The notes beneath the pieces were generated by a model. That model did not search any database. It saw only the letters and a list, made by a program, of their open reading frames with translations, and was not told the DNA's origin. A stretch of DNA of 64,000 bases from Marsupella aquatica. Taxonomy: Eukaryota > Plantae > Marchantiophyta. The DNA lies in NCBI GenBank assembly GCA_973895155.1, contig OZ316896.1, forward strand, positions 15,312,476-15,376,475. Direction: 5' to 3'. How positions within the stretch are numbered: position 1 is the first letter of the stretch; each line of letters begins with the position of its first letter. This document shows, piece by piece, positions 2,260-63,954 of the stretch. The translations under genes and the position numbers were made by a program.

Positions 2260-4029
2260 CTACTCGCCCGTGTTCAGTACTGACTCCTCATTCGAAGGAT
2301 TGCTCTCATGGTCCGTGATCAGCTGCAGTCCCGTGCTGTCTTTCTGGAGGCACTTCTGGATGTAAGGAACGGAATCGAGTATACTGCGTCCATGGACCTC
2401 GGGGTCATGGGGGCAGATGAACGTCTCCGCCGCTTGATCGAAGCAAACGTCGACTGACTGTGCCCTCTCACACGCTGGGCCGCCATCGTCGTCGACGTTG
2501 ATGAACCAGGGCCTGAGAGCTCCATAGGCTTGCGCCAGGCCCCCGAACGTAGACACGGGAGTGACGAGCAATGCGTCCGAGAGACTTAGGCAGATGATCT
2601 CAACAAATGCCTCAACATCGACTTCCGACCCGAAATGCTGAGCCTCGCTCTCGTGCGTCAGCTGGACCAGCCCCACCCCCTCGCCGGTTGCCGTCATCCT
2701 CTTCACGTAGATTTCGCTGAGGTAGTCGTGCAGGCCCGGAAAAAGAGAAGCAATGAAGACCTTGCTCGTGTTCCGTAGATGATGATCGTAGTCTTTGAAT
2801 TCTCCAGCAGGGAGAGCTGTGGGAAGAAGCTTGTTAGCGGTGACACACTGTAGCACTCTCTGGTTCACCAAATCGTTCATCTTCTTGTACTGCGGAAGAT
2901 GCCTGAAGTATCTCAGCTGCACCCCAACCAAACTCTGGGTATGCCGCAAGTACAAATCATTGATGTCGTCTATCCTCTCCCAGATGTGATCAGACGGGAG
3001 GAACACTGTTCGGAGGATGTGAGTGAGAGCCATCCGGTCCGGGAACATGTCCTCCAGTGCTGGACGAAATGCGGGAATGGCGAAGAGTTTGGGAAGAAAG
3101 TACAAGCACCCGGACATGGAGATCCATGGCACCTTGCTCATGTACGCCTGTTCGGTGTCGCAGTAGTACCTGTCCAACGGCTGGAGCTTGTCAGCGAAAT
3201 CCACAGCATGTAATTCGTCAGGTTGGGGGGGGTTCTTGAACTCCGTCATATCGACCCAGAGTTGAAACTCGCTCCGGGTGTGCCAGAAATCTCGGTAGTT
3301 GCCTACTTCGGAGGGATCCTTCAGCTTCCAGGAGGAACCGACGAAGGGCTCGCAGAGATGCTCCGTGATGTTGAGGTTGTCCGGGATCAGAATAACTCTC
3401 TGGGTGAGAATGGCGAAGAGCAAGGCGGAAGCTTTGAAGAGAATCTTGTTGCCCAGGCCCACCTTCGGTAGCTCCACCACCAGAAACTTACATCCTGTGC
3501 TGGTGTTTCTGCTCAGGAAATGCTCCGTGATGTTGCCCGCTTGACTGATACATGTCCTGTGCATCGTCGTGTACTCTTCGAAAACCTCTTCCCACGCAGG
3601 ATTGGGAAGCAAGTCCTGAGCGATATTGCGGCTGGCGTACATCATTGGCAGCTCCCACCGGCTCCTGCAGGAGTTCTCCATGTGCCATTGGTCTTCCTCT
3701 TCTGCCTCGAAAAGCACTTCTGGACCAGAACTGGCAGCTCTCACTGTGGCAGACCTCAGCGCGTTGATAATGTCGTTCGCTGAGTGGAATGAGACGGCTG
3801 ATTCTCGAGATTTTTTCGCCTGTATTGGCGTGTACTTGTTATAGTTGGAGGCGATGTGCCTGATGTCTTTTAACGATAGAAATTTGGAGTATGTTGCCAG
3901 CCCTGAGTTGTTGCTACACGAACTGCTGACCCAAAGCAGAAACGAAAGCGTCCCGAACGTTGCGTAGAAATATGCGGCACGCGAGAATGGTTTCACCAAC
4001 CGGGGTGGACTTTTGGGGAATGCCACCAT
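2260..4029 (-). CDS. Xyloglucan galactoside 2-alpha-L-fucosyltransferase-like protein (GT37), intronless
   Basis: Long ORF with an N-terminal type II membrane anchor (AYFYATFGTLSFLLWV) and GT37 motifs: CKFLV..GLGNKIL, LFAILTQRVILI, LCEPFVGSSW, YFLPKLF, VGVQLR, LSLSDALLVTPVSTFGGLAQAYGALRPW. Start placed at the ATG before the anchor (4029); the ORF stays open to 4149. Confidence 0.92.
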   Translation of the reverse strand: MVAFPKSPPRLVKPFSRAAYFYATFGTLSFLLWVSSSCSNNSGLATYSKFLSLKDIRHIASNYNKYTPIQAKKSRESAVSFHSANDIINALRSATVRAASSGPEVLFEAEEEDQWHMENSCRSRWELPMMYASRNIAQDLLPNPAWEEVFEEYTTMHRTCISQAGNITEHFLSRNTSTGCKFLVVELPKVGLGNKILFKASALLFAILTQRVILIPDNLNITEHLCEPFVGSSWKLKDPSEVGNYRDFWHTRSEFQLWVDMTEFKNPPQPDELHAVDFADKLQPLDRYYCDTEQAYMSKVPWISMSGCLYFLPKLFAIPAFRPALEDMFPDRMALTHILRTVFLPSDHIWERIDDINDLYLRHTQSLVGVQLRYFRHLPQYKKMNDLVNQRVLQCVTANKLLPTALPAGEFKDYDHHLRNTSKVFIASLFPGLHDYLSEIYVKRMTATGEGVGLVQLTHESEAQHFGSEVDVEAFVEIICLSLSDALLVTPVSTFGGLAQAYGALRPWFINVDDDGGPACERAQSVDVCFDQAAETFICPHDPEVHGRSILDSVPYIQKCLQKDSTGLQLITDHESNPSNEESVLNTGE

Positions 4030-4774
4030 GATGACTGACGAGAATGAACAACAACACGAACCAAGCTCTCGCCACAAACCCCTCAAAATCGTCAATCGAT
4101 TCTCCGCCGCGGGAGAAATTCCCATGAGAAACCACAAGGTCTCGACCACTGACAGTTCCCTCCTTCCCGTCCTGCATTCTCTGATGAGCGACGCCGTCGT
4201 CGCCTCGAGCTCAAATCAACCACCACCAGACTGATGCTTAGCCGAGATCAAATTGAATGCCAACTACAACACGTTGTGTCGACAGAAGGGCGTTTTGCTG
4301 TAAAGTTCTGGTGAACGGGACTGTGGAGGGACGACGGATGACCCCTCCCTCGGCAATGACTTCTGCAGACAATCCAAGCTTTCCTCCCCCAGGCGAGCCT
4401 GATGAGGCCGTCATGGAGGTATCTTGCCACACCCCGATTTTCATAATTCCTCGCTCCCCTCTGGTGGCCGATTCGACCCCCATGACCATGACAGAGACAC
4501 AAGAAAATCTTCCGATTCCCGTCACCGATTCCCATGGAAGAGGACTGTATCCATTTCACAACAACAGTGTGGTCGAACGTAAACGACGAATGCGGCACCG
4601 GAGAATGCATGAAGGAGAGGGCGGATCACACAACTTTCCTTTCAACACTATTCTTTGCCAAGAATCGGGAGGTTGAGCAGTGTGGGCCGATAGGTAGCAT
4701 CCGATTTGTGTGCATACCGATAAAATAGAATAGCGGATCGGAAGCCAGAACAAGTGGGCAGGGAGGGCTGAGTT

Positions 4775-38383: not shown

Positions 38384-38505
38384 GGAGTAAATAATAGTTT
38401 AAGTACCTAATTTGAAGGAAAAAGGACCAATTTACTAAAACTATTATTCATTATGTCGCCTTCAAATTGAGCAAAATTAATAACTTGCCCCCTAAACTAG
38501 TTTTA
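38384..38505 (+). mobile_element. Mutator/MITE-type terminal repeat, copy 1
   Basis: AATAATAGTTT...ACCAATTTACTAAAA...AAAATTAATAACTTGCCCCCTAAACTAGTTTT is repeated at 58598-58712. The GAGTAAAT start and CCCCCTAAACTA are typical of MULE-derived MITE ends. Confidence 0.6.
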
Positions 38506-40482: not shown

Positions 40483-43000
40483 GATTGTCCATAAAACTTG
40501 AAAATATTTTCGTCTCACAATTTCTGTATGTCCTTGAACATTAATATTGGGACTGATAATGGATCACTAATTTGTGATGAAATACTTGGTGAAATGACAC
40601 TTACACCATGGACTACAAAAAATCCAAGTCAAACAACCTGATTAAACATTCCCCCACTCCTCTCCCCAGTTAAAAAACATTTCCCCTCATCTCCCCAAAT
40701 CCCTCCTCCCACCCCAATAAAAAGGAAAAGTAGAAAATCCATGAGTCATTACCTCCCTGCCCAAAAACAATTACCCTCCAGACCCCTGGAAAATGAAAAC
40801 AATTCCTCACCACCCCTAACCGGCCACTAACAACAAAATGACTCCCCATTCTGAGTGTTAATTCTCTCAAAAAGAAAATTATGATAAAAAGACAAAACAA
40901 CCAAAATAGGTACTCCCCGTTCACAGTGCCTGGGTGTACAACTTGTATCTATACTAGCTGCCACCTCCTTTCCTCTATTCCTTCCTGAACAATATTGGGT
41001 CCGGAACCATACCTGACTAGCCCCGACTACCCGTTCTTTGAACGTGAATAGCGGAGAGGACAATAAAGGTATCACCAAAGTATTTCTATATTCACATTCT
41101 TTGAAGGTTAATGAAATGATAAAAAAACATCATGCATGTCATCATTTTAATAATCATACATAACATACCATACTCCTTTCTATGCACATCACTCTTTCCA
41201 TGTGCATATGTTATTGTGGGGCCATAGAGTCAATTTTTCAATGTAAATAGAAATCTAATGCTCTAGGATGACTTTACTAACATGCTAACTGGCCAGTCCA
41301 AAACAGTTTCAAAACCAACAACCACTCAAGGATCAGGCAGGTCCCATCAAGAGGGCAAACGCACAAGGAAGAGAACCAAGAAGTCACCCACCCAAAATTA
41401 AACACTACCTGCTCCAAATGTCCAAAGAGCAAGGAGAGATTCAGCATACACTAAGATTTGGACAACTGTCCCTTGGCAAAAATCCAAACAATCAATTACC
41501 ACCTGCAATAGACCACTACTGCAAAAGGAACACCGAGAAAGGTGAACCAAAAGGAAAAACATCTCAATGTGGACCAAAAGATCACAGAGTACCATAATCC
41601 ACCAACCATACCGGTTTTCATACTCTTTTTCCAAATAATAAAAGATGTGCAAAATGCCTCCTCACCTCAATATGGGGTATACAATTCCAACCAGCACACA
41701 GTAGTGCTATCTGGCTACGTGCACTACAAGTGAGCAAAGTGACAAAATTTATGTGTTGGCTCAGCGCTCATTTAGGTTTTTTAGTTTTCCAGTCTTCACT
41801 CATCATGAATTCATTTTTTGAGAGTTGGTGCGAAGATTGTTTTTTGAAACAAAGCATCAAAATAATCTGTATTCCAACAATTCACGCATACTTCCATAGA
41901 GGCTGTCTTGGGGAGAGGAAGTGTGACAAAGACAACTAAATTAGATATTTTGTAGAGGCCCCTGGCCCAAGATATGTCATTCAAAGTTGGCTTATCAATA
42001 AACTTATTAAGAAAGTCAAGCTTTAGGTGATCAGTTATTTTCCTTTGAATTTTTTATGCCATGTGACGAGTTCTTTTAAGTATTGGTTTAGGTTTTTTTT
42101 ATGATAGCAATAAAGTATCTGAATGACTTGCACTATTGGACCTACGGTAGCTTTACTCCATTAATGAGAAATTGAGCACTAACTTTAGATATGATATCTC
42201 TTTGCAAAGGAAACAAAATCTTTATTTATTTATTTGTTCAAATCCAGGTAAGATATGTCTTTCCCACAGAAACCTGAAATCTCTGTTTAACTTCATTCTA
42301 GGAGGGAGTGAAGTTGCCTTCTCATTTGTCCTTTAACAAAAGTCTGAATGGGATGAAGCACAACCCCACAATAATGTCCCTCAAAACTCCAACAGAGGCT
42401 CTCATTTTGGGGAGCATTCTGGCACACGAGGACCCTTGTAAACAAGACTTTAGTATAATATATACATATACATACAAGTTAACAAAGGTCATATATAAAC
42501 AACTTTAGTAGCATATGCAGACATATACATACAACGTAAGAAAGGTCAGAAATGCGATGAAGCATAACCCCACAAGCAAGGGCAGAACGGGGGGCAGAAG
42601 GGAAAGAAAGTATTAACACCGCAAAGACTGGTTAGTATAAAGCACTCCGGGTTACCCGGAGCCTGCATTCAATGAACTCATCTACAGTTCACAGCCTCTT
42701 TCGAGTGGAGCGCCTGTTTTGGACCACCAGATTTCTGCTTGCCCTGACTCCATTTTTGCACCATTCAATTAGTGCTTGGGATCGGTAAAAATATCTCGCC
42801 AAGATCTACGGCTAGAACAAATCCTGGAAGTTTTTGATCAAGGATAACCACTGTTTTTCCAGTTTAATTTCTCTGGAATCTGATTGGCCCTGTAAATGTT
42901 TTTGAATTTTGAAATACTTGGGCAGAGTTTCAGGCAACAAGATGACAACCCACTTTGAACTCTTGTCTAAGTATAATATGGCTTTCACCGTATAATAAGA

Positions 43001-46954: not shown

Positions 46955-47547
46955 AGGATATCAAGTTCACAAATTATTCCATGCGGCTTATTGAACTTTG
47001 AAGATCCTCGAGATGGAGAGGGATAAAGAGGTAAAAGACGATTTTGTCACATCGCAGGACTATGAGAAACTTTGCAAATAAATAAATGTCGAAGTTAGGG
47101 ACAGGCCCTGGATGTCGAGAAACTTTGTTGGAGGGCTTGTCCTGATTGCTGATGCATTTGTGCTGCAGGAGATTGTCGTCGCTCTGTTACTGCTAGCGGT
47201 TGAAGGGTCGGGATGAAGATCTTTGTTCATATGTGATGTGTGGGGCACTTGTCGGCCGCGTACATTCTTTGTTTGGACGTGGGTGGAACATGTTCAGTCG
47301 TTCGGTAAGCAGTGACTAGAATCCAATATTTTGGGTATAAACACCGTGCTAGCAAATAGTAAATAGATATTCTCATACAACATCAGAGGAAATTTCTTGA
47401 CGATTTCACACAAGGACTCCAATATATTGCCACGAAATATGAAGTCGAAAAAAAGTCATACAATAAAACAACACTTTAAGAACTCACACTTCTGCCCATT
47501 AGAAAAGACAAACTACAATTGTAGCTGTTCAATGATAAAGCAACAGT

Positions 47548-50500
47548 CTACGTTCTCGTTCCCAACTGCCTATCAAGTATGTAACGGACTTCTCCCAACG
47601 TTAGAATTGGCTGGCTACATAATGTCGAATCGAGCACATCCAATTTGAACACATTCTTGAACACCCAATACACATGTTTGCAAGGCATGTAAGGCTTCCG
47701 ATAAGTATGCTGACGATAGAAATCCTTGCAAGAGCAACATGGGAAACAACAATCTGAACCCAATAAGAGGCGACTGATCTCTCATGTTCATGGGTCCGGA
47801 TACAAAACTATTTCCCCGACGCATTTCCACTCGTGATCTCTCTCTCTCCAATGACCCTCATCACTTCTTTTTCAGAGGCTTCAATTCTCTTCAAATGTGT
47901 TTGGGTAAGATGCACTCTTTGCAAGCATTTCTTCCTGTTCCTTGAAGCGCACCTCACAGATGGGTCAGTTAGGTTGATCCTCTCCGGGAAAAGATTGACA
48001 TCAATCCGTAACGTAGAAGGCAACGGTGCTTCGATTTCATCTCCACGGCCTTCGGAGAGAATAAGTCCTTGTTCTTTCAAAAATTGAATCTCTGCTCCAG
48101 AAAGATTGGTCCCTCTAGCAATTGGGAGATGTGAAGGAACATTGGGAACGTTCGTCTCCTTGTTGTGCTTTGGTGATAGTGGTTGTTGGGGCAAAACCAT
48201 ATCTGATTGTTATAAGGTTGCCCCCTGAACATTCTGCATCCTCTCACAGATATTGCAACAACACCATTTGGATTCGGAAGGCCAACCTTCTTTACTCGAT
48301 TTTGACATTCATCACGACTACCTCCCCGTCCAAGGGTTCCGTTACACACTGGACCCGCACCCCGTTTTGAGGTCCAACGCAACTGCCAGGCACCGGGAGG
48401 TACTTCACTTTCCATTGGGGAAACTGAATGACAATATGCAGTCTCGACAGGTCTTGCAGGCGTCACTGGTGGGACAGAGGATCTCGTTGCTCGACGCGTA
48501 GGTGTGTCAATGACCACAACTTCCTCAGAAGCATCGCTTTCTGACAAATTATGGACCGCATCAATTCCACCGGCTGAAGGCGTAGAAGGCAATTTCTCAA
48601 AATCAGTGGAATGCAGGTTTCTCCTTTTCAACCTTTTGTATTTGGTGAAGTAACAAGGATGGTATCATGCCTGTGCGAGTCTTCTGCCGAGACGTTCCCA
48701 GTTGCATGTCCTTTTCGTTTCACCGATCGAGTTACAACATCACCATTCAATGGAACACTTCTTTCCAAATCAAACTTAGTAGTGTTCGACAGGAGGAGAT
48801 GGGTGGCTTCCTCAAAGAGACGCGGTGACCCCGCCAGGTCCGCCGATCTGAAGGCAAGCTCAAAAATAGTTGGGCCAGTTCCTTTGCTCAATCCCCTTTT
48901 GTATGCAGTATAAGCAGCAATTGAGCAACCGCTCTATTTTGGTCTGTTTTGCATCCTTCAAACAGACCAACCTTTTTTTCTGTTGCCATGCTTTCATTCC
49001 AGCATGCCTAGATTCCGAACCAGTACAATTAGGAATCATCCCAGCCTCTTCGGCACTCTTGCTCTGAAACATTGCACGCAAGGGTTTAGTACATGTAAGA
49101 AATTGCACACAAAAGTGGCAACACAATGGAAATAACAGTAGCGCCAGACGCTAATAAACTGATGATGATATTTCCATGTAAAGAACCGTTTAACACAGAA
49201 TAAAGGTAGTCCTTACATCACTCATAGTCCAAACGGATTATTAGCGCTCGGCGCTACTATTGCGGATAAGGAACTCTTCTATCTCACACATGCTTCACTA
49301 GCGCCGAGCGCTATTAATGGGAACATGCATCCTAGAGCAGTGTATAACTCACCAGTCTTATGAAGTTCCCCATTGTCTCCATCGGACAACCCACCAAGAC
49401 AGCCACCCTTGCAGCATCCAAAGTTTGCCTGAGTGACAATTGCTAGACCTCCACCAGTCATCGATTTCCCTCGAGATTCGATATGCTTTCAAGAAAGTTG
49501 GCGCGTTCCGAACACGATCCCACATCTCCTTGTGCTCTCCGTGCTTTCCATCTTTTACACCTTCTCGGGAATGACGATGAAAAGATTGGAAAAAATGAAA
49601 GGCATCTGATCTTTCTCGCTCTGGGTCGGGTACACCGTCAAAGAACATGTTTCGAACAGCATTCCAACCAGCCTGAGCATTGTCCGCCATGAATCCCCGA
49701 ATTGTAACATCCTATAAACCATTTTCATTGGCAACCTCTAACATCAAACGCCAGGCTCTCTCTAGAGATTTTGCATCTTTGGCCTTTAGCTCACAAGTGA
49801 ATATGGTGCAAAGTGCCCGATAATGATGATCATATACATGGGCACTAAAAGTAAGCCAATCTGCCGTGCTTCGATGCATCACGTCAAAACTTACCCATGA
49901 ACCCTCTAACAACCCACCAGGTTTCATTCTTTGGAGCAGGTCCAGACCACTCCCGTCACCTTTTCCGGTCATTTTAAAGATATGAGCACTCTCGTCCCGA
50001 CAGCCTTGACCAGGGAGCAAGAACCTATGAAGAAAAGGCAGTCGGATACACTTTTGCATCCTCACAAGAAATTCCAGTTCCCCTTTCCCCTTCTGATCTT
50101 GACGGACACTCCTTAACACGGATGCAAACTTCTGAGGAGATGCGACGACCATTAGGGACTCCCAGATTTCCTTCTCTTCTTCAAGAGAGATTTCTTCAAC
50201 AGAGGCCTCGCAAAATGTATTTGTCAATGTCTCAGTCGCAGAGTTTTTAATCCCTGTTGGGGATGCCATGGGGTTTGCAGTGAATCCCTTCTCCAGATGA
50301 GACCTTGCAACCTTTTCTGCCTCCCTCGAAAAGACCCATCGACTGGGATGATTGTGAAATCCCATATGAACAGCTAGTCGCAACATTGGGCCAAAGACTT
50401 AATGTCAACTTTTGCAGATGGATACATGTAGAACATTAGAGCAGGGCAGGCCTCAACGCACATCGGAGGTTCAGAGCAATGGTGACAAACAACTCCACCT

Positions 50501-51351
50501 TCGGAGATCAATTCCCCAACTCGGAATGGGCCTGAAAGTTTTGGGGTTCTTGCCCACATCTCATTATTTCAAAACTTGTTGTCTTTCCACCACAAACAAG
50601 CATTATTTCGACACTGCAGCGATCCCGTACACTGGACTTTCCCGAAATCCCACATTTTCTTTGGAAGAACATTTGAAGACGTTTTCACAATCCGAGTCCA
50701 ATAATAACAATCCTTACCACGATCCATATCTTTCAAACGTTCACCTTTTGCGTTCACACAGTCTACCGGGGGTAACTCAAAAACCACATTCCCATTGTAA
50801 GATGTGGGAAGACTAGGCACTACGTGATGAACAAAATCACTCCCCCTTATAAACCGAGACAATTCACTATGACCTTTGGATTTCAAGATTGTATCCATTG
50901 CACTCTGCCGGTACACAATCAAAGGCACAATCATTTCTCGATCCGCATTAGACTCCTTTTTAACCTCGGATGGGTAAACTGGAATCTTCTCTCCGAGAGT
51001 AGTTGTCGCTTGCTTATCATCTCCAGAACTTTCCGAGAGTTCGATGACATCAAGTTCAGCCGCTGTGGGAGGACGAGTATAGGAGGCCCCAGAATCTCTC
51101 AAAACAAAAACCTCATATTCTTTCTGAGCCTCCAGAGTCCAATATCTTTGACCATGAACAACATCGTAGAAAATTGGAGTCTCCCCCAAACAAACCGACA
51201 CTAACAAGATCGCTAAAATAGACTCCTTGGCGACATCAAATCTCACTCCCAAATATTCCTCTGAAACACGCTTTGATTTAGATGATTCAAGGACGGGAAT
51301 TGTGATTACATCCCGAGTGTCCTTCCTCGTGACAACGATATTTTGAGCCAT
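47548..51351 (-). pseudogene. Mutator-like (MULE) transposase with N-terminal zinc finger and C-terminal SWIM finger, disrupted
   Basis: CTGSLQCRNNAC...CHHC...CPA...RLAVHMGFHNHP (GCM/WRKY-like finger); SFDVMHR..WLTFSAHVYD..LCTIFTCEL; FMADNAQAGWNAVRNMF..FHFFQS (MULE core); CSCKDF..PCKHVYWV (SWIM). In-frame stops at 50569 and 49712, frameshifts near 50386 and 48880, and an intron at ~49.09-49.35 kb. Confidence 0.8.
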
Positions 51352-52132
51352 GGCTTCAAAAGAGGGATATGCATTTGCCCCACGCGAAATGAAATATGTT
51401 TATCATGAGATTCGAGTACGAGAAGTAAACGTTCCCATTCTCATTATAGAGTCGTTATAGATTTGGACGCACTCCATCAATGACGTTTTGTCGTCTTACC
51501 AATGGCAAGATTTGGGTTCATAGTTATTAGCGCCTGGCGCTACTTCTAAGTGTAAAACACTCTTGGGTGAGGACTACAAATGCCAATAATAATAGCGCCT
51601 GGCGCTACCTCTGGGTGCAAACATTCTTGGGTGAGGAGTACGAAGGCAATAAATAATAGCGCCTGGCGCTACCTATTTCAATGGACTTGAAAACATTCAA
51701 TGGAAGGATAAGTACGATAACGCGATACAGTACGAGTCATTAAGTTGGCACGCTTGAAGATCTCCACTGGATCTTCGCGAATCCGATCCGCCCGGGTCCA
51801 AATGTGTCAGAGAGGAAGCGTCCATGAAAGTTATATCAGAGGGTCCTCTTCAAAGTGGGTACCCAGGACCAAGTGCGAACTCTCCTTATATCTAGTCATT
51901 CTCCTCCGATGTCCTCATTGTCAAGCCATTCTTCATTGAGTCGTAGCTGTGGCTCATCTTTCGGGCGCGTGGTTTCCGTTCTTGCTTTCGGGCCCAGTTG
52001 TTCTTTTTTGCTTTTGTGCGCGTTCTTGTTCTCCTTCTCGTCCTCGTTTCTCATTCTCGTCCTAGTTCACGCTGTTGTCCTCCTTCACGTTCTTGTTCGC
52101 GCTTCTTGTTCTCGTCCTCGTCCTCACTTTTA

Positions 52133-52561
52133 ATGGCACCTCCAGGAGGGAAGGCAAAGGAGGAGGCACTTGTCCCGAGCGACACCGACCGGGAGACCCC
52201 CGCATCAAATAGCTTACCGCCTTGGCCGAATGCCGAGAGGACGACGGTTCCAGTCTCGAAGAAGGGGAAACTCATCTCAAAGACGAAGAATGCCCCAACT
52301 GTGGGCCGCAGCGAAGGATCCAATCGGCCAAATGCGAGCGGCCCAACTTCTGTTCCCGCTAGGGATATCACCCCTGCTTCAGTCGGCCATCCAAGAGCTG
52401 ACACTATCTGCACGGGAGTCTCTGTATCTTCTTCATCCATTGAGAGTGATCATTCTTCGAGCGAGGACTCATCACCGAGCAAGCGAGGATTTGCGTGGTA
52501 TGGATCGAGCGACTCGAATGACGACTCCGATGCATACAAGCCAAGTTGGTGGGAAGACTGA
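52133..52561 (+). CDS. Short low-complexity S/P/D-rich ORF inside the transposon
   Basis: ATG-initiated MAPPGGKAKEE...SDDSDAYKPSWWED. No recognisable domain. Confidence 0.3.
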   Translation: MAPPGGKAKEEALVPSDTDRETPASNSLPPWPNAERTTVPVSKKGKLISKTKNAPTVGRSEGSNRPNASGPTSVPARDITPASVGHPRADTICTGVSVSSSSIESDHSSSEDSSPSKRGFAWYGSSDSNDDSDAYKPSWWED

Positions 52562-52866
52562 TTTCCCGTTGTCAGAGCGTATCATTCGAGTGTTGGAGAG
52601 ACTTGGAGGATCCATTGAGGTTGATAGGATCTGTTTCCACTCATTTTTTTCCGATAGAAAATCCATACCGTTCCTTCCTCGTATGCCGGATTTCTAGTGT
52701 ATTGTAACATTTTGTATATGAATGGCACAGCCGTTTGTTTTTACCTCGGTGTCAATGCTTTTGAATTCAAAAGACCAAGCTTTAATTTCGGGTTCTACTC
52801 CCGTGTTTGCATTGTATTTCTGAATGCGAACCTGAGCTATTTCTTTGAAATGGCCGTAAACACTCG

Positions 52867-53085
52867 GCTTATAATGACCCAATTCAAATAAAGAGTGAGG
52901 AGGAAGAAATACTGGTAAAAATCAAAAAACGTGAGGCTGAGATCACCTATTTTGAAAAAAAAAATACTGAACAAAACCATAGTGGCCAAGAACGCCCCAG
53001 ATATTCTATGGAAAATAGAAAACGTCGAAGTAAGCTTCGGCTTATAGATGGTAAGGTGGGGTGATAACGGTCGATTTATTTTCAT
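52867..53085 (-). pseudogene. sdh3: NUMT: 5' part of mitochondrial sdh3
   Basis: MKINRPLSPHLTIYKPKLTSTFSIFHRISGAFLATMVLFSIFFFKIGDLSLTF...LNWVIIS closely matches the recalled liverwort mitochondrial Sdh3; truncated after ~73 codons. Confidence 0.9.
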
Positions 53086-53110
53086 CTTTTTAGTTGACTC
53101 CGATTTTGAT

Positions 53111-53138
53111 TCAAGGTGACAGGATTTGAACCTGTAAC
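53111..53138 (-). pseudogene. trnP: NUMT: 3' fragment of a mitochondrial tRNA, probably trnP(UGG)
   Basis: The minus strand reads GTTACAGGTTCAAATCCTGTCACCTTGA (T-arm + acceptor stem) ~25 nt upstream of the sdh3 ATG. trnP-sdh3 is a conserved bryophyte mitochondrial gene pair. Confidence 0.7.
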
Positions 53139-53983
53139 TGCTGTCAATGTTTTTACTAGCATTCGGCGCTATTATGAGAAACAAAGTGTCTATAACACTG
53201 TCGTGAATGTCTTATCTCTAAAGTATTTTTGATAGCGTTGGGCGCTATTAATGAAAGGAATCACAAGTCAGACCCGTTCGGAGTTATTTTTACTTTTATT
53301 TCAACAAATTCTGTTCAATTGATGTGCATTTAAATAGCGTCAGGCGCTATTGTAATTCATTGGAATATTTGTTGAATGAATGGGTTCATGTGGTCATGTT
53401 TGTTGTCATTGGACTCCGATTTCATCATTTATTTGAATACTAGCGCCGAGCGCTACTAAAGTTGGCTTGTCGACACCTGCACAAAATTGGAAAATTTATA
53501 GACAATTGTGTTGATAGTACTGCCCATAGCTACATTAAGATGGTTTTTCAGATACATTTGAAAGTATGTCACTTGTATAATAGCGCCTGGCGCTATCCAC
53601 AACTACCGACACTGATGTGGTTCCAACGGTCACTTTCCAACAGTAATATTATAGTAGATTGAGGTTCACGGAACCCTTTTTGCTTTTGTCTAGGATGAAA
53701 GTCCAATCGGAGAATGCCATCTGTACTTGGGACCGTTGTAATCGAATGGCTGGTTCTATTGTATCGGTGTCTTAATACGAGGTGGAGATCGCTCGTTTGG
53801 GATAATTTAGTCCGTCTACGCGCTCAGACCTCGGACTGTATGAGTTTGTCAAGTGCGTATGTGCGTCCTTTATTGGTCCCGTACATTTTGAGACGTGATC
53901 GTGACAAGAACTGCACGACGCGTACGACAGTGCCGGGTGGTTGAGTCGCTCTCCACGACAACTTTTGGCTAGGTGATACAAGA

Positions 53984-56900
53984 ATGGGGGAGGCTGATGG
54001 TGGTCATTCTAAGTCCTCTCAGCCTTCGTTCGCTGGTTCAGTATACACCCGTCGCGTCACTCGATCGACTACGTCCCTGTCAACTTCCGAAGCTGAATCT
54101 ACACAGCCCTTCCCGAGGTCGAGGAGAGGGAGAATGGACCCTAAGGACGTCTCCATGGGTGAAGTCAGTGACATAGGCTTATCGATGGACGAGGTAATAT
54201 CAAAGCACGCATTGTCGTTCGGGAAGGATTTTCAAGGATTCGATATGGAGCCACCTCGAATTCCTCTTTGTAGATTGCTCCCCATGGAGGTTGTTCGAAC
54301 CTTACAGAAAGAAAGTGCATCGATCGAGAAGTTGAAAGAATCATTCCGTGTCACCGGGTACAACTCGCGCATTGGGATGCCTTTCTACGTTCAGCCTGCA
54401 AATGCCGATGGGGTACGCGAGATCCGGGACTCTTGGGATCCAATCTGGGTCGCAGAGAACGACAAGTTTGAGGAAGAGTGTGATGCGGACCCAGCGTTCC
54501 ATATTCTAAAAGATACAATGTTTTGTGTGTTTGACGGAAATCATCGATTGTACTCGTGGTCAATCGTCACGAGGGAGAATCCGGACAACTTGAAGTATCA
54601 TCCTCGTGTGATTTGCGTCATTTTCAATGGTGACAGAGGTTTGCTAGTTGAGCTCGAGGCGGCAATGCACACCGTGAACCTGTAAGTTCTATTCGTTAAC
54701 TGTTGTTACCCCTGTCATTCATTTTGGACCAAACATGCTTTGCGAAAGTGTTCATTCCCCAATTTTTGCTAGCGCCCGGCGCTACTAATTCCTTTTCATT
54801 GCATCCAAGCTTGGACAAGCAGTTGTCAAGCCTTCCTAGATTCTTGACGCGGACAGAATTTCCTGAATTCTGTCGCGTGATCTTGATCACTATAAGCCAC
54901 TCATCAACAGCGCGAACATGGCAAAGTTTGAGGCGATCCAAAAGAAGACGAGAAAGGGGTCTTGGTTTACACATAAAATGCCACAGGATGCTCTCATCTA
55001 CATTCTGTGTGTGGACAAAATCAAGTCTTACTCAAATCAATTTAAGTCTGATATGGCTTTAGCCAAAGCTCAAGGGGCTTCTTGGTCAGAAGAGGAGACC
55101 ACAAAGAGGCATGAGGCAATGATGAAGGAGGCGACCAAAGATTGGTCGATCAAAGTGACGAAGATCACCCCTTTACTTCATCCGAATTTTGGAGATTATT
55201 TGGGAACCTGTGCTGAGATGTATCCCGTAACTGAGAAGAACAAACGGGAGAAGAAGCCAGACACAGTTGTATGCACAATGGATCGAGCCAGGTTGTTTAC
55301 TGCTATTTCATACCTAGATCCAAAATTGAGGTGCACCCTTCTAGTAGCCCACTGCACTCCCGAGATTCGGAAACAGTTTTTCCATCCTGAAAGTGTCAAC
55401 GACGAGCCTGTGAAGCAGTGGTGCCATACATGGCATACTTGGAATTCTGTGGAGGGAATTGCAACTGGAATGCTTCACACTTCCTTCAAACAGATTTCTG
55501 ACCGGATGCCGGCTGACCGTCTCACAAAGTCTGGGTGTGAGTCAATGGAGGCCATGCTTAAGATCATTCTCGATGAATTCAGAAACGTTGGGGATCTTGT
55601 CAAGGCAAAATTCTTCAACAACTTGTGGCCTTCCAAATATGCGGACAAGGAACATTACACAAAGCGGAACCGGAAGAGAGCCAAACGATATCTATACCAG
55701 TTTTACATGTGGACGGAGCTTAGATCTCCTGACACTCTGTGGGCATACCCGACTGCATTTCAGAAATGGGTGTCTATCGAAGAGGGAGACGCTCTTGCCG
55801 ACCTTTATTCGATGTACCAGCGGAGGGAAAGTTTCCACCACGTTCATTATCGGAGTGGGAGAGACTTCACTGTCCGTGGTACCTCGACACAGACAAATGG
55901 GATTTACCATTCGACGAAGCTGAGAAGGATGCCTTCATGAAGTTGTAGGAGTCCCAGATCCCTGCCAACTATGTGTCTGCAATGAAGCAAGGTCTCCAGT
56001 CTGATGTTGACAAATCTGCATCTGAGTTACAGAAGAATTGTGAGTCTCTTGTCATGCACGTTGACCGAAGCCGTAAGCCAAGAGCAAAGGCGAAGAATGA
56101 GTCAGCTGCACCAAGTGACTCCACAAGGTCCTTCAAGAAAAGTGAGTAGTCTAAGCGCTTTTTGGTTACTTGTTGGCGCTGCTTATGCAGGAGTTTCATT
56201 AGGAAATTCCTTTGATTAATAGCGCCTGGCGCTAGTCTGAAAGGTTGGACTCATTCAAGTTTCTGTGCCTAACAGGAGGTTAAAAGTCTGACACGGAGGT
56301 CCCGGCTGCCGAAGGGAAGAATGATGCAACTCCTCAGGCATCGGAGGCAAACACTGGAGCTCAAGAAACCCCGGATCAAGGGATCCCGGATGGTGCTGGC
56401 AAATCCATTGTCCCTCTTGACGCAACTAGCACGAAGAAAAAGAAAAAGAGAGGCGCCGGTGAGGACAGAGCAACATCATCTACTCGAGACGTTATTTCCT
56501 GTCGACTCTAGAGAGATGTCGGGAATTTTAAGCGAAGGTGTTCTAGACACTGTTTTGTGGAGTCCAATTTAAACGAATTTTACGATTTGGTATTTAACAA
56601 GGGGATGAAGCCCATGTGGGTTACTAAAGTTGAGGCCTAGGGAAAGGAATTGGTAAAGTCAGGAGACAGAGAGAAGGGAGTAATGCGTGGCGGAAAAGAG
56701 AGGGGCTTTGGTGTGGATGCTGGTTTCATCTACATTCCCACTGGATTAAAACCAACACTTCTTGATCGGAAGGTTCCCAAGTGGAACCTTCAGGATTACA
56801 CTATTCCCAGCTCTTTCTTCCGAGCCATGGAGCCGTTCCTTGCAGACAATGGCCTACTTGCAATTTTACACAGAGGAGACTATGATCAGGTATCTGAAGT

Positions 56901-57729
56901 GATTGCGGCTTGCCAGGATTCTAAGTGTTTCCAGTGTATTTCAACCCACCATGTGGTCATGACTACACCAATGTATAGGCCCCGATCTAATACTCAGGTA
57001 ACAATTCCTCTTGCACATACTAGCGCCCGACGCTACTATCAGCATTCGCAATATCTACAATTCACTTATCTTTCGTAAGGATGAATGGTTGACTAGCGCC
57101 AAGCGCTAATATATGTGTCTGTTTTCTTATACTGCCTTCATTGGGAAACTGTGTTGCAGATATTCACACTTACTCTTAATATATTTTGCCGCATTTCGAC
57201 AAAGGGAAGGGTCCCGAAAGACCCCAAGTTCTGGCCACTATCGAATGAAGAAGACCCTTCCGTCACTAACATTATTGGGTTTTCGTTGCCGCGACATGAC
57301 CCGACTCCTGAGCTCCAATTTGCAGGAAATTCACAATTGCCTGTGGGTTTCATGCAAACTATTTTGGAATTGGTGACTCTTCCTGGAGATATCGTTATGG
57401 ACTGGACAGTAGGTTCCGGTAGTACGTTTGTGGCTAGAGATTATTCTGGTCGCTTTGTTGTTGGGCTGGAAAATCGGCCAGAGTTTGTTGATACTTCCGG
57501 TAAGGTCTTCCTCGATCTTTTACAGAACAAAGAAGTGGTTGCACCAACTCCTCCTAAGAAGATTCCTGGAAGTAAGAAGCAGGACAGGCTCCGTGCTATT
57601 CTAAATTTTGATTCGGAAGACGAGGATGAGGGTGGCAATGCTTCTCAGCAATCTGAAGATGATGAGGTGTCGAACAATGTGGTGGACCTTGGATCTGGAG
57701 ATGAGGACAGTGAAGAGTCAGAAGAGTAA
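53984..57729 (+). pseudogene. Spliced gene: N-terminal ParB/sulfiredoxin-like domain fused to a C-terminal beta-class N4C/N6A DNA methyltransferase-like domain, disrupted
   Basis: Exon 1 has IEKLKESF..GY and VFDGNHRLYSW (ParB-like DGxHR). GT-AG introns at 54682-54910, ~56142-56276 and 56998-57159; the first and last were checked in frame. C-terminal VDAGFIYIPTG...FLADNGLL...QLPVGFMQTILELVTLPGDIVMDWTVGSGSTFVA..SGRFVVGLE follows motif order IV..X-I-II. A frameshift (~55.8 kb) and stops are present. Confidence 0.8.
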
Positions 57730-58597
57730 TTTTCTTTAGCTTTCTTTCTCTCATTGTATACTTTTTTCCAAAGAACTCCTCTACTCCCTTTTGTCTAGAA
57801 AATTTTCCCGATTTCCCGACTTCGACTAAAGAACTCCAGTTCAAATTCTCAGGTCAGAGTGGAATCTTCGGAGGCATTTTCAACTTCGAAGGAACGTCTC
57901 TAGGAACGTTGTACAGACCCCGGAGAAGCCATTTGTTCTCCCCTCTTATGCTGAAAAGGCGGCACGACGGGCAGATTCAGTCAGGACGCTTACTTGGGAG
58001 AGTAAGGGTCTTAGACTCCGGAGAGGCTCAGATAGAAAGTTTGTGCAGAATCACTTCGTAGATGATATTGCAAAATCCAAGTATGTGGACGACAAAGCAG
58101 AGTCCACTAATAGATCAGAAAGTAGCGGTTCTAAATCGGGCTCAGAGTCGAGTGGTGGTTGTGGATCTGGTCTTTAGTTTTCCTTGTTTTATTTACCCAT
58201 TTATGGAGAACGACGACACTCAATAAGAACGCCGTGACGTGTCGGATTAGACTAGCGCCCGGTGCTATTACTGTAGCCGGTAGTTCAAAGAGGTTTTTAT
58301 TTGGTTGTTTTCCTTATAGCGCCCGACGCTAGTATAAATGTACTCAATGGCCGCTTCACGTCCAATACATGTGACAATATTTTCATACCCTTCGGTGTCT
58401 TTTTTTGGGTGCACATTTGTTGGTATGAGTTTTGCTGTTTGTTGTTTGTTGTTTACTGTTTGCTGTTTGCTGTCACGGAGAGATCCCCCTGGAGAAAGCA
58501 TATGTGGAGAAAACGTATGTGGAGAAAACGTATGCGCAGAAAAAAAGTTTGGAGCCATTTGGGGCTCCCACCTCAAAGCTGAACTTTAAGTTCAGCC

Positions 58598-58712
58598 AAT
58601 AATAGTTTGTACCTTAATTTGAAAGAAAAAGTACCAATTTACTAAAATTATTCTTTATTATGTCACCTTCGGACTGAGAAAAATTAATAACTTGCCCCCT
58701 AAACTAGTTTTG
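58598..58712 (+). mobile_element. Mutator/MITE-type terminal repeat, copy 2, truncated on both sides
   Basis: Direct homolog of 38389-38505. It abuts the transposon hairpin on the left and the LINE poly(T) on the right. Confidence 0.65.
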
Positions 58713-60410
58713 TTTTTTTTTAATTAAAATTTATTCCGCGTGAACCCCACGGATGGGGGAAGCAGCAGGCCAGAAGGCAAAATAAGGGGGGCAACAAGGA
58801 AAGTGACACCACAGCCGGTCAAAGTCGAACCATGCGCAGTGGCACAAAGCAAGACAGAGTTAAGACCGGGATTCTAAGTAAGACACAGTAGGTCAATAGA
58901 GCACTAAACCCACTGAGTGATTGGGGCCCTAACGAGTACAGTATTCCACTAGGCAAAACTAACAAGTAATCAACCATAGCTACATCTGCAATTACTGTGG
59001 GCAGGCAGAACCGGACTCAGATTTATGGGTCTGGTAGTATTACAGGTATTCCAGTGCCAACCCGATTTAACCTACACAGCACAATCAGACAGAGAATAGA
59101 CGTCTCACTTTGCTCCTGATAATCCTAATCTGTTCCTGCACTAGAGTATGCTTAGCCTGTGTGATCCTAGAAAGCTTATTTTTTGAACTAGTAGCAGTCG
59201 CCACTGCAGTATGGTGATCCAATGTTTCAGAGATGATCGGTATCTGATCAAAAACCCTTTTTTTGGACAGATCAAACGTCTGATCATTACGTGCATTCCA
59301 AATAGCCCACAGAATCTGATAAATCAAAAAGAGACGAAGTGTGCTCCAAGGGTTCTTCTCAAGCGATAAGAGGATTAACTCTACCAGATTCCGATGTGGT
59401 TGTATGATAGTACCATTTAACCAGGTCTGAGCTTCCAACCAACATCTCTGTGCATGTCTGCAGTTAGTGAATAGGCGGGGGATAGTCTCAATTCTCCCAG
59501 AGCATAAAATGCAAATTCCATCCGACTTGGCAATTCTCACTGCTCTGGATCCAGAGAACAGTCCCTGCGCCAGAACCCGCCATAAAAAAGTTTTTGCTCT
59601 AGTGGACAGATCTGCCGTCCAGATAGTCAACCAAATTTTGCTCCATTCTTCATCAGTATGGCTTACTTCCCATATTCTGTTCAGCCTGAGGTGGTCCGTT
59701 CCTTTAGGTCGCAGCATTTCGTAAACCCGCCAGTTTGGTAGGCCAAACTGTCTCATCCGTGTGTCCTTGTCAAGCCATTGCCATTGACAAGCGAGGGTAT
59801 CAAATCCACTTCCATGGAAAGCAGTACCATGTACCAACCTGATCAGTGAAAGACATAAGTTTTGATCTCCATCGATAATGCCTCTCAAGCGGTTCAGCCT
59901 GGTATCCAAGTGTCTCCAATCATCCCCAGCAAGGGACCAAAAGTCCCCCACCCTCCTGATTCCTAAGCTGCCACAAAGCCGGGTCAATGACACAATGGAT
60001 GCTTCAGGCAAATCATAAAAATCCTGAGAGCACCGGAGTAGATCCTCCAAAATCCAGTGTCCCGGGATCGCCTCAACACCAGGATGGAAGATCAGGTTTT
60101 CCCTAGCCAGTGCCCAAGCACCCCATAGTTGCCCTGTATAAGACAATTTCCCAAAAGATTGTGGTGAACCCAACAACATTAGATCTGTCATAGAATAGTG
60201 GTTCCTGCACACAGATCTGTAGTTTCTCCATTTTGTCAGTCGCAAGTTAACAGCAAATAGTTTAGCCCATTCAGTCTCCGGATTATCCAGAGCCCCGGTG
60301 AACCACTTACAGAGGAGTGCATCTGAATGACTCCTAAAGTCCTTCAGGCCAAGTCCGCCATCAACCTTGGGCCTGCACAATTTATCCCACGCCACCAGGG
60401 GTATTGTGAT
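58708..60410 (-). mobile_element. 5'-truncated L1-like LINE (ORF2 C-terminus, 3' UTR, poly(A))
   Basis: IPLVAWDKLCRPKVDGGLGLKDF, KTFLWRVLAQGL, CILC..ETIPRLFTNC (zf-RVT), LWAIWNARN; stop at 59085; plus-strand T-tract at 58708-58721. Confidence 0.9.
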
Positions 60411-60519
60411 GCCTAGACAGGAATCACTCGGCCGGTTAAGTGGGTAAAGCAGGAAGGCACCCTTGGAACACCTTAGTATAGTGACAAAACAAGGAAAATA
60501 TAAACAATTAGGGGCAACC

Positions 60520-62145
60520 ATGGAACCCGGGCCGAGGCCGGAGGTAAGGCTGAGGGTGAAAACCCGATTAGGGTTAGGGCGCGCTAAGCGTCAGCGGCTA
60601 GGAAGGATCAACGGGAAGAAGGACCGGCAGAGGAGAGGGGTAAGGAGCGCTTGCAGGAGATGGTGGCTCATTTGCGAGCACGAACTAGGCAGACGACTAC
60701 GGGAGGCCAACTACTGTCAGCTGCTTAGGCAAGCACTCGGGGAGAGAGTAGATACCGACGATCAACCTAAGGAGGGTATGAGCAACGTCAATCAAGCGGC
60801 ACATTTCTGGGGATGCCTGTTCGAACGGGCAACTGACTACATCAAGACTTACGAGGACGAGGAATCAGAAAGGGCAGCTCGAGAACGGCAGGAGCTCGCT
60901 CGATTGTGGGAGCTGCAGAAGACGGCTTTCTTAGGAGGCGAACTCATCAAGGACAAGTTCCTGTGGACGCCTACTTCCAATCAACTCGACGATCTTCTGT
61001 TTTGCAAAGACAGCGTCGTCGGCATCCGAGAGGCCATCAAGAACTGCAACGACATACACTGGGAATTAAAGGGTAGCACGGAAAGGTGGACCCAGGCAAC
61101 GGTGCTAGGAGAAACCTCCACGGCAGCAGAGATGAAGAGGAAGGGAGCCGTCAACGATGAAGCCACCCCGGCAAAAAGAACGAGGTCGGCGGCACCAAAG
61201 AAGCCAGCCGAGCAGCAGAGCAGGAGGCAGGGAGAAGCCGAAGAGGAGGAGGTCGATCCCATCAAGGCCATTCCAACCAGGGATGACACCTGGAAGGGCT
61301 GGGCGGCAACCCTACCGGTGGAGGTGCAACTACATTTTGCACGGGAGGAGGATGCATGCTTTACGGCCATGCAGACCAAGAAGTACCAAGGCTTCATGGC
61401 CGGATCCGGCTTGGAGGCCTTTGTAAGATTACCATGGCTGAAGCCGGAGGTACCGGAGTCAGACCTATTAGAATTCGTGGGGTCATGGGAACCCGAGACC
61501 AATTGCACGAGGATATATGGGAGGGATTTCTATCTTACTCCCAAGGTAATTGCCGAAGTGTTTGGCCTGCCGATAGGCAATAAGACCAAAGTTGATACCA
61601 GGAAGACCTTGCCTGACAAGGAGTTCCGGTCGTTCCCCGGGCCATCAACGAAGAATGGCTTCTTCCGGAACACCTGCACCAACCCGCACATAGGAGAGAT
61701 GATCGACTTCTTGCGGGTGACCATGCATTGTAACTTGCCGAGGGCAGAGATCGGCAAGGCACAGGTCTATCTGGCAGAAAGGCCAGACCCAAGCCGGGAC
61801 TACAACGGGTACCTCCTCAACCAATTGAAGAAGATCTTAAAGGAGGAGCAGCAGGTAATCGGCATGGGGAGCGTGTCGCGGCTTGGCTATCACATGCCGC
61901 TGTTGTGCCGGTATGCCAGAGGTCAGACTTTTGCCCCGGTACTTCCCCTGCAGGTAAGGGCACCCGAGGAAGCTCCAACGCCGAGGCCGTTGGCTGAGAA
62001 GCCTCAACCACCTGTTAGTCCTACGATCGAGCAGGTGTTTAGGCCCAGGAAGGAAGACTTGCCGATGCAGCAACCAGGCATGCAGAGTCTGCTGAAACTA
62101 CTGGAGAAAGAAAAGAAGGTGGACCTAGTCAGGCCCGCCTACTGA
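60520..62145 (+). CDS. Transposon accessory protein with a plant-mobile-domain-like region
   Basis: Intronless ~540-aa ORF. GLEAFVRLPW...LLEFVGSW....IYGRDFYLTPKVIAEVFGLP resembles PMD / plant transposon protein domains. Confidence 0.55.
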   Translation: MEPGPRPEVRLRVKTRLGLGRAKRQRLGRINGKKDRQRRGVRSACRRWWLICEHELGRRLREANYCQLLRQALGERVDTDDQPKEGMSNVNQAAHFWGCLFERATDYIKTYEDEESERAARERQELARLWELQKTAFLGGELIKDKFLWTPTSNQLDDLLFCKDSVVGIREAIKNCNDIHWELKGSTERWTQATVLGETSTAAEMKRKGAVNDEATPAKRTRSAAPKKPAEQQSRRQGEAEEEEVDPIKAIPTRDDTWKGWAATLPVEVQLHFAREEDACFTAMQTKKYQGFMAGSGLEAFVRLPWLKPEVPESDLLEFVGSWEPETNCTRIYGRDFYLTPKVIAEVFGLPIGNKTKVDTRKTLPDKEFRSFPGPSTKNGFFRNTCTNPHIGEMIDFLRVTMHCNLPRAEIGKAQVYLAERPDPSRDYNGYLLNQLKKILKEEQQVIGMGSVSRLGYHMPLLCRYARGQTFAPVLPLQVRAPEEAPTPRPLAEKPQPPVSPTIEQVFRPRKEDLPMQQPGMQSLLKLLEKEKKVDLVRPAY

Positions 62146-63954
62146 CAGATTACCTGCCCTTGACCGAGTCAACTCTCCATCGGCCTGACTGGGTCCACCT
62201 TCGGCTTCAGCCTCGACACCGGCCTCGACAATACCCACGGCTTCGGCCTCAGCCACTCCCACGGCTTCGGCTTCAGCCACTCCCACGGCTTCGGCCTCCC
62301 CTTCCCCTAGGGTAGTTGGATCTGTAGCCGTGACCCTGTCTGGGGTCGGTGCTGGGTCTACCTCCTTGATCACCACGGCCTGTGAAGTCGTATTACTCCT
62401 TGACCCTGCAGGTTTCCGCTTCTTCTTCGTTGGTGGCTCGGCAGCTGGTCCCTTCCCCTTCCCACTTACTTCCGGCACTGGTGCAGGTGGCGCGGCTTGT
62501 CCTTCGGCAATTACCACCCCTGGTAACTGGTTTGTCCCAACGGGAGATGGACCTGCTGCAGCTAAGCATTTAAATACTGCGGCTTGTTTCTTCAGCCGCT
62601 CTGTTTGGTTGTCGGCCCGCCGCTGTAGGTTCTCCATCTTCCTCGTGATTTCCTCCAACTCCTCTTGGGTTTCATCCAGGTCCTTACGTGCCCCCTCCAG
62701 CTCGTTTTTGGCCTCCTCCTGCTCCCTGTGGGCTTCCTCCAATTCCTTCTTCAAGGTAGCCCTCTCCTCCTAGGTTGCTCTTAGCTCCTTGTCGAGCTCT
62801 GCAATGATGACAGACTCCATCTGGTTCATCTTGGCGTAAGTCTGTTCGAGCATCTCATCCTTCTCCCTTAGGTCGGCCTTGAAGCTGGCCGTCAGGGACG
62901 CAAGCTCCTGCTGCAGCGCCATAATCCCTTGATAGGATTTCCCTAACTCGACCTCCTTCTGCTCAAGGGCTCCGCGGATTTTCTCGAGCTCCCCTTTCAA
63001 CGCCCATTCCTTTCTTTGGGTCTCCGCCATGGCCCGGCTGTTGGCTGTTATGTGGGCCTCCTCTGTATTCTTCAGCTCTTGCTTCCACTTCTCCCTCTCT
63101 TTGATCGTGTCGACCAACTCTTCCTGCGTCTGAGTCAGTTTATCCTTGATATTCTGATTATCAGCCTGCGCGGCGTCCAACTGCCCCTGCATGATGTTCA
63201 GCTCATGTCGTTTAATCCGCAGTTCATCTTGGGCTTTCTTGGCCGCCCTTAGATCTTCAATCTCGGCTTCCATCCTCCTAAGCCGCCGAATGACCTCGTC
63301 CTTCTTGCTTCTCTCTAAAGCCACCGCTTCTTCTAATTGGTGCTTCTCCAACTGCTCCCTATGGAAAAAGGGTCCTACCTCCAACTCCTCTCCAAAGATG
63401 CCGAGCGCAAGTTCCCCACACATCTCACCATACTCCAAGGCTCTATTCTTAGCGTAGGTGGAGTAAGTAGAAGTGATCGGCATCGCCCATCGTGGCCTCT
63501 GCTCCCAAGCCGTCCTGCGGATCTCTTCAATCATGGCTAGAGGTTTGCTTCCTTTTTCGGCTAGCCGCCTGATGTCCTCCGGCCAATCTCCTCCTGGTAA
63601 ATCCTTTTCCTTAGCCAGGGCGGCCTCTTCCTCCTGCTTGATTCGCTCCTGAAATTCCTGCACCGTCTGTTTTATGTCGTCGAAGCTCGGGGGAGCAACA
63701 TCTGGTGGGGGAGACTCAGGGCTACTCTGCTGGTTGGGGTCCCCTCGCACTACCCTTGGAAGTGTGGGGACAAACCGGCCACAGGTCCTTACTCCTGGAA
63801 CGTGATGGTCCGACCCATAGCCGGAATTATCATGGCTGCAGTCCTCCACTGCCTCCTCTACCTCTTGGACGTCCGGCTTCTCCCTCTCCTCTTCGTCGGT
63901 AGGAGCTTCAGGCAATTCTGCCTCAGATTCGGAGCTTGAGGTTCCCACGTACAT
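62125..63954 (-). pseudogene. Coiled-coil, transposon-associated protein with one in-frame stop
   Basis: ORFs 62770-63954 and 62125-62754 share a frame, separated by TAG at 62770-62772. Long E/K/Q heptads and a 21-nt repeat (AEAEAVGV). May continue beyond the window. Confidence 0.55.

Follow-up and report, generated by a model that had tools for sequence, protein, structure and literature searches.

Transposons that carry an accessory gene joining a ParB-like domain to a DNA amino-methyltransferase domain are already known. In Ectocarpus, such a gene encodes 1,104 residues on the strand opposite the transposase, and its product has been proposed to bind and modify its own element; similar proteins are cited for green and red algae, and the available excerpts of that report name neither a target site nor a test of the algal protein (PMC12477816). 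ParB-terminase loci and ParB-methyltransferase fusions are described in phages (PMC4738411), and transposon-borne C5 methyltransferases have also been reported (PMC5890265). In plants, the accessory protein VANC21 binds a short motif located in introns and between genes of the elements that encode it (PMC5735166). As for eukaryotic enzymes linked to N4-methylcytosine (4mC), Marchantia DN4MT1 carries a TSPPY motif (bioRxiv 10.1101/2021.02.12.428880) and rotifer N4CMT carries SPPY (PMC8885841). Here we describe a locus of this general kind in the liverwort Marsupella aquatica, found in a 64,000-nucleotide (nt) stretch of contig OZ316896.1 (assembly GCA_973895155.1, positions 15,312,476 to 15,376,475), hereafter the window. 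It is a high-copy DNA transposon with an accessory gene, on the plus strand, whose product appears to combine a ParB-like front with a methyltransferase domain altered in its catalytic motif IV.

Comparison with described systems

When likened by description to the Ectocarpus gene, the liverwort gene has much the same make-up: about 1,100 residues, a ParB-like front, an amino-methyltransferase back and a position opposite the transposase in a large DNA transposon. It differs in its land-plant host, in the likely Mutator-like transposase, in a motif IV that lacks the aromatic residue throughout the family, and in an array of palindromes that is a candidate target; the string "palindrom" does not occur in the main text of the Ectocarpus paper (PMC12477816). 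The same domain order is seen in the ParB_N plus N6_N4_Mtase fusion of Streptococcus phage Javan93. However, that protein has 418 residues and an intact DPPY motif and lacks both introns and a large helical insert, and the phage and family ParB parts align weakly (18% probability).

The VANC/VANDAL system of Arabidopsis, itself Mutator-like, shares with our element an accessory gene, poor terminal repeats and a short motif that has built up in introns and between genes (PMC5735166, PMC6446971). VANC motifs are described as 8-9 nt long, non-palindromic and experimentally bound, whereas the resemblance here is one of layout, and Pfam searches found no VANC homology in the accessory gene. The methyltransferase domains of DIRS1 elements are likewise transposon-borne amino-methyltransferase folds with substituted catalytic residues, but they are PCIF1-derived, belong to a different structural group and reside in a retroelement polyprotein (PMC4738411). 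DN4MT1a/b and N4CMT, finally, are bacteria-derived beta-class folds in eukaryotes, as here, and N4CMT has also gained introns. In contrast to the present family, they are host genes with an intact (T)SPPY motif and a shown link to 4mC, and N4CMT has a chromodomain rather than a ParB domain. ParB-methyltransferase accessory genes of transposons are therefore a known kind. Apparently new, against the literature consulted, are their occurrence in a likely Mutator-like element of a liverwort, the conservation of D-h-P-T/S at motif IV and the presence of candidate binding sites.

A beta-class methyltransferase domain split by a predicted intron

The initial annotation had placed a prokaryote-type beta-class amino-methyltransferase domain, split by a spliceosomal intron, at 56650..57530. 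This range does contain the methyltransferase domain, but only as the last domain of a four-exon gene spanning about 53984-57729 and encoding roughly 1,100 residues; the ParB-like front and the palindromes had been overlooked, while the reading as a methyltransferase in a transposon otherwise held.

The class of the domain was borne out by several searches. Exon 4 (57160..57729, plus strand), which encodes the half that binds S-adenosylmethionine (SAM) and an acidic tail, matches Pfam family PF01555 (N6_N4_Mtase) with an E-value of 8.5e-9, better than the curated cut-off. In the PDB it matches beta-class enzymes (DpnA/M1.HpyAVI at E 5e-4, CcrM, MboIIA and PvuII) and in PHROG five methyltransferase families (E ≤ 1.4e-4). 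Exon 3 (56276..56997, plus strand), which encodes a low-complexity linker and then the first methyltransferase half, gave no methyltransferase match when searched alone, Pfam being among the searches. A profile of the whole family matched 12 phage/viral beta-class enzymes, hand-picked from 207 matches found using the SAM half alone, with 97.5% probability over 196 columns. Since this alignment sets the family D-L-P-S/T-G in register with the phage/viral D-P/L-P-Y (D/S-x-P-Y), the YIPT of the window copy is correctly assigned to the motif IV position. The order of motifs is that of the beta class, motif IV preceding motif I, together with the profile match to the PF01555 fold. The SAM loop (D-x-x-x-G-x-G) and the acidic residue after the next strand are both present, as DWTVGSG and GLE in the window, where motif I (DWTVGSGST) lies at 57400-57426. 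The G-x-G of motif I is kept in 20 of 22 family rows, and the usual Phe of D-P-F is replaced in the family by Ala, Val, Ile or Thr.

With respect to origin, the lowest E-values among the matches listed for the Riccia model P0074 were those of Streptococcus phage adenine methyltransferases (6e-4). In a tree of family and phage rows only, rooted at the midpoint, the window sequence joins seven Riccia rows (support 100/99); the phage side has long branches and the tree names no donor. An AlphaFold model of the domain (pLDDT, the predicted local distance difference test score, of 36) was too poor for an informative fold search. An RNA or small-molecule methyltransferase, which would have spoken against the assignment, was ruled out, the Pfam, PDB and PHROG matches being DNA amino-methyltransferases. 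Riccia models bear the UniRef label "trimethylguanosine synthase", which Pfam did not reproduce, and an MTS match was weak (E 0.037), beneath the stronger PF01555 match. Bacterial contamination was ruled out by the introns, the plant flanks (a xyloglucan fucosyltransferase gene) and the repeat depth.

The interruption of the domain at 56998-57159 (plus strand) has the features expected of a spliceosomal intron, as had been proposed: 162 nt, phase 0, a GTAACA start, a TTGCAG end and in-frame stops inside. In alignments with P0068, a Riccia sorocarpa model, the spliced product scores 82.4 bits (306 columns) and the unspliced reading 58.9 bits (359 columns), the 53 extra columns disappearing after splicing. 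The donor position is conserved, because homology to the Riccia models P0070 and P0042, the latter from a separate subfamily, ends at a common column, which marks entry of the frame into a Val (GTN) codon. From the sequence and these homologous gene models, we infer that 56998-57159 is a spliceosomal intron.

Loss of the motif IV aromatic residue across the family

At the motif IV position (56731..56742, plus strand), the window copy reads YIPT and its Riccia sorocarpa relatives read D-L/M-P-T/S. We aligned 32 family rows and dropped nine with a missing or partial motif IV, which left 23 (22 named Riccia models and P0053). Asp occupies the first position in 22/23 rows; at the fourth, all 23 have Thr or Ser and none an aromatic residue; even the distant Riccia subfamily of P0042 reads DLPT. 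The motif of active enzymes, [D/N/S]-P/L/I-P-[Y/F/W], is thus absent both from the window copy and from the aligned rows. Mutants of other enzymes in which only the motif IV aromatic residue is changed are reported to lose activity. In a structural model of N4CMT the motif IV Tyr stacks the target base (PMC10406627), and an N4CMT double mutant of Ser and Tyr has no activity (PMC8885841).

Because no aromatic residue occurs in any of the 23 relatives, the motif IV defect is, judged from the alignment, family-wide and extends beyond the YIPT of this copy. The suggestion that the domain may be inactive or repurposed is therefore likely to be right as to the loss or change of catalysis, but this is not specific to the YIPT copy. 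As read from its motifs, the family has kept a near-complete methyltransferase fold with one key residue changed, and canonical methyl transfer by its protein is probably absent. The window copy of the gene is in addition a pseudogene, with six in-frame stops (54837, 54864 and 55946 in exon 2; 56281, 56509 and 56638 in exon 3) and one frameshift near 55816; three of these lesions read differently in other copies.

The (T)SPPY motif of 4mC enzymes of the DN4MT1/N4CMT kind is likewise missing from the family. The element also gives reason for care before PF01555 matches in bryophyte genomes are taken for writers of 4mC. An SPPY motif, which is of the 4mC type, occurs in a beta-class methyltransferase that Mollyvirus Mo1-1 encodes at 2452-3390.

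A ParB-like front and a family-specific helical middle

The Riccia model P0068 (1,207 residues) matches the four window exons in order. Exon 1 (53984..54681, plus strand) is predicted to encode a ParB/sulfiredoxin-like domain, with a DGNHR motif at 54533. About 580 residues of the homologue P0070 were modelled confidently by AlphaFold, and the first 180 residues of the model match KorB, PadC, ParB and sulfiredoxin at Z-scores of 5-7 (KorB 6.8, PadC 6.2, ParB-N 6.2). In a Foldseek search with the same model, ranks 1-6 were all ParB/Noc, yet all had E > 0.001. Atlas searches with the window exon itself gave ParB_N and DUF3723 as leads, and PHROG gave a ParB-like match at E 0.17. Taken together, these middling lines of evidence and the G-N-H-R motif point one way, to a ParB-like domain. 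The exon order of P0068 and these fold leads, middling as regards the ParB fold, thus suggest that a ParB-like domain and an amino-methyltransferase domain are united in one protein.

Exon 2 (54809..56141, plus strand; start approximate) encodes a domain specific to the family, which is all-helical in the high-confidence model of P0070 and shows no clear known fold. A search with it found 65 relatives at E ≤ 0.001, and the 26 looked up included ten Riccia sorocarpa models and two models from the leafy liverwort Calypogeia fissa. Since the helical domain also occurs in Calypogeia fissa, and the methyltransferase domain persists across subfamilies just 27% identical, the protein has arguably retained a function. 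Word-index searches with exon 2 and exon 4 (longer proteins) returned nothing, a weak negative given that relatives exist. Neither metagenome scans (with exon 2 and with an alignment) nor a viral scan (with another alignment) recovered loci. A weak tblastn match (E 4e-4) of the helical-domain relative P0021 at 41448-41687 (minus strand) may be an older remnant of the gene family.

Behind the gene lies a short reading frame (57830..58177, plus strand), which also follows the methyltransferase in Riccia models; the tails of P0085 and P0092 match it at E about 5e-4 (38% identity, 82 residues).

An array of palindromes confined to the element

The palindrome TAGCGCCNGGCGCTA has 16 matches at ≤2 mismatches, compared with 0.01 expected from shuffles. 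Its arm pattern, TAGCG-N5-CGCTA, occurs 17 times, at 49139, 49242, 49299, 51528, 51593, 51657, 53157, 53233, 53335, 53441, 53581, 54770, 56220, 57021, 57094, 58253 and 58317. All copies lie between 49139 and 58331 and outside the approximate exon map, and none was found elsewhere in the 64-kb window, including the stretch of the element copy between 47342 and 49139. Four are located in the three introns of the accessory gene, two of them (57021 and 57094) in the intron of the methyltransferase domain, and three in the transposase intron. A short motif is therefore repeated in the non-coding parts of the element, as for VANC. The arms are conserved at 168/170 positions and the four inner consensus positions at 56/68, the core being CCNGG. 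CpG is depleted in the later exons of the gene (observed/expected 0.60-0.69), and the arms contain CpGs; that CpG-bearing arms have been conserved amid C-to-T decay suggests selection for a protein-binding site.

At 51525-51674, upstream of the transposase-like gene, three of the palindromes belong to a tandem unit of 64-65 nt, as if multiplied by tandem duplication in the manner of VANC targets.

A high-copy transposon with a likely Mutator-like transposase

The element spans about 11.1 kb (47342..58480), its right end being less sure than its left. Run X1 gives a depth of 10 for the left flank contig and of 278-377 for four near-identical element contigs, a roughly thirty-fold excess, although contig depth is only a rough guide to copy number. 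The start near 47342 is suggested by the flank contigs of runs X1 and X2, which stop at 47371 and were built from 31-letter words. Candidate degenerate terminal inverted repeats lie at 47342..47382 (plus strand) and 58440..58480 (minus strand); they are the best ungapped inverted match between the end regions, a weak match not scored against chance. No target-site duplication of the 8-11 bp usual for Mutator-like elements (MULE) was seen at these candidate ends; they could be wrongly placed, or the flank could have undergone rearrangement.

A broken transposase-like gene (47800..51420, minus strand; intron about 49352-49065) is arranged head-to-head with the accessory gene, on the opposite strand of the same element. 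Its N-terminal part is Cys/His-rich and 34% identical to the Riccia model P0046. MULE transposases have the catalytic layout D..D..(C/D)xxH..W..E; the candidate catalytic residues here are D 49885, D 49684, H 49597 and E 49015, spaced 67 (D-D) and 29 (D-H) residues apart, as against 69 and 24 in Muta1 (PMC5225508). It gave no MULE match in Pfam and no match in the PDB, and its likely assignment as Mutator-like is made on motif layout. The accessory gene is thus set opposite a transposase in a large DNA transposon. Since Riccia models link the transposase front, the helical domain and the downstream frame, P0046 itself joining the first two, the gene set travels together. The transposon setting proposed in the initial annotation is supported, and a single-copy host gene was ruled out by the contig depths.

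Two further features lie in the central region. A fragment of sdh3, likely mitochondrial DNA, occupies 52867-53138 (Pfam Sdh_cyt, E 2.6e-14); other copies are without it, because contigs of runs X1-X3 skip those 272 bases. Between the divergent genes there is a low-complexity frame at 51947-52560 (plus strand, Met at 52134), which has no Pfam match and could represent either a third gene or an exon lying upstream.

Possible function of the accessory protein

We tentatively propose, as something just short of an even bet, that the accessory protein binds the 17 palindromes of its own element and guards it against host silencing, with no canonical writing of 4mC or N6-methyladenine (6mA). ParB dimers recognise parS sites and load onto DNA there. 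By analogy, a dimer of the accessory protein would recognise the two-fold site and load via its ParB-like domain, while the methyltransferase-like domain might still bind SAM, or a base that is flipped out or methylated, with poor or no methyl transfer. Occupancy of the intronic and intergenic sites could then maintain transcription and mobility of the element, in parallel with the role of VANC at VANDAL elements. If so, plants would possess, beside VANC, a second, independently built, sequence-specific counter-silencing system made from bacterial parts. With a precise candidate site and the apparently full-length Riccia model P0068, binding, spreading and catalysis are all directly testable.

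Several observations weigh against this proposal. The ParB match mainly concerns the N-terminal nucleotide-binding domain (Z 6-7, middling), with no clear helix-turn-helix in the match to the P0070 model, and the transposase has a likely DNA-binding part of its own that could be the binder of the palindromes. The palindrome contains a stop triplet on both strands, which makes its absence from exons partly mechanical. The conserved Asp and SAM loop are also needed by an active enzyme, and the 23 motif IV rows, drawn essentially from a single genome, are related to one another and so are not independent. Moreover, the window copy looks silenced and decayed: among the 40 best-supported differences, taken from 1,463 listed and including a few outside the element, 29 are T/A here and C/G in other copies.

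If the conserved Asp (22/23 rows) and G-x-G (20/22) reflect catalysis, the family could be active amino-methyltransferases with an unusual D-h-P-T/S motif that place 6mA or 4mC on the element encoding them, perhaps within the palindrome or beside it, in which case the Tyr at motif IV of the window copy would be copy-specific decay. Seven of the 12 hand-picked phage/viral enzymes read D-L/I-P-Y, one residue from the family motif, and proteins of this kind are predicted in the Ectocarpus paper to write 4mC or 6mA (PMC12477816). We nevertheless consider this somewhat unlikely, as a motif IV aromatic is found neither in any of the 23 rows nor in the second subfamily, the Phe of D-P-F in motif I has become Ala, Val, Ile or Thr, and the methyltransferase domains of DIRS1 transposons are described as all likely inactive (PMC4738411). 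It seems to us unlikely that the palindromes are instead bound by the transposase and that the accessory protein has a role needing no specific sequence, such as bridging or compacting the element, clamp-like, while it transposes, or working on nucleotides. Internal sites could substitute for the poor terminal repeats, and members of the ParB/Srx group include nucleases and NTPases (PMC10853773), but the sites are spread over introns and the central intergenic region rather than clustered at the ends, a layout resembling that of VANC.

The initial annotation had further suggested that such elements could be the vehicle or source of liverwort 4mC enzymes. A common Pfam family and beta-class motif order, the same plant group and the existence of a mobile carrier would fit a source for Marchantia DN4MT1, but we found no support for this idea and regard it as most improbable. 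Of the four motif IV positions, three differ between TSPPY and D-h-P-T/S. Scores with the family profile were 22.6-34.7 bits for the seven D-L/I-P-Y enzymes and 15.8 bits for the single SPPY enzyme in the set of 12, although the profile includes motif IV and is therefore biased towards the former. N4CMT, present and detectable in the PDB copy searched, is absent among the ten matches of exon 4 and the three of the profile, and the 26 matches of the family's methyltransferase query were all Riccia models, with none from Marchantia (a search of low sensitivity).

Our preferred reading, binding of the palindromes without canonical methylation, can be extended to a bolder version, which we regard as distinctly doubtful. 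A land-plant transposon would have acquired a phage-derived ParB-methyltransferase module along with the module's parS-like sites; the encoded protein would load at the 17 palindromes and spread as a clamp, and the re-tooled methyltransferase, a dead reader or a new-motif writer, would shield the element from host silencing by 5-methylcytosine. Were this true, a bacterial partition-style spreading system would be acting in plant chromatin.

Neighbouring features

No tRNA genes were called in the window. The host xyloglucan fucosyltransferase-like gene lies far to the left of the element, at 2260-4215 (minus strand; XG_FTase, E 7e-52). Adjoining the right end is a 115-nt repeat, present at 58598-58711 and 38390-38504 with 89% identity and preceded at the former site by 15-nt tandem units (58490-58549). 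Directly right of the element, 59085-60590 (minus strand) encodes the C-terminal part of a reverse transcriptase of the long interspersed nuclear element (LINE) type (zf-RVT, E 2.6e-9). Long GC-rich, coiled-coil-like frames follow on both strands at 60448-63457; one of them, of 565 residues, has no Pfam match, and the region is probably another mobile element.

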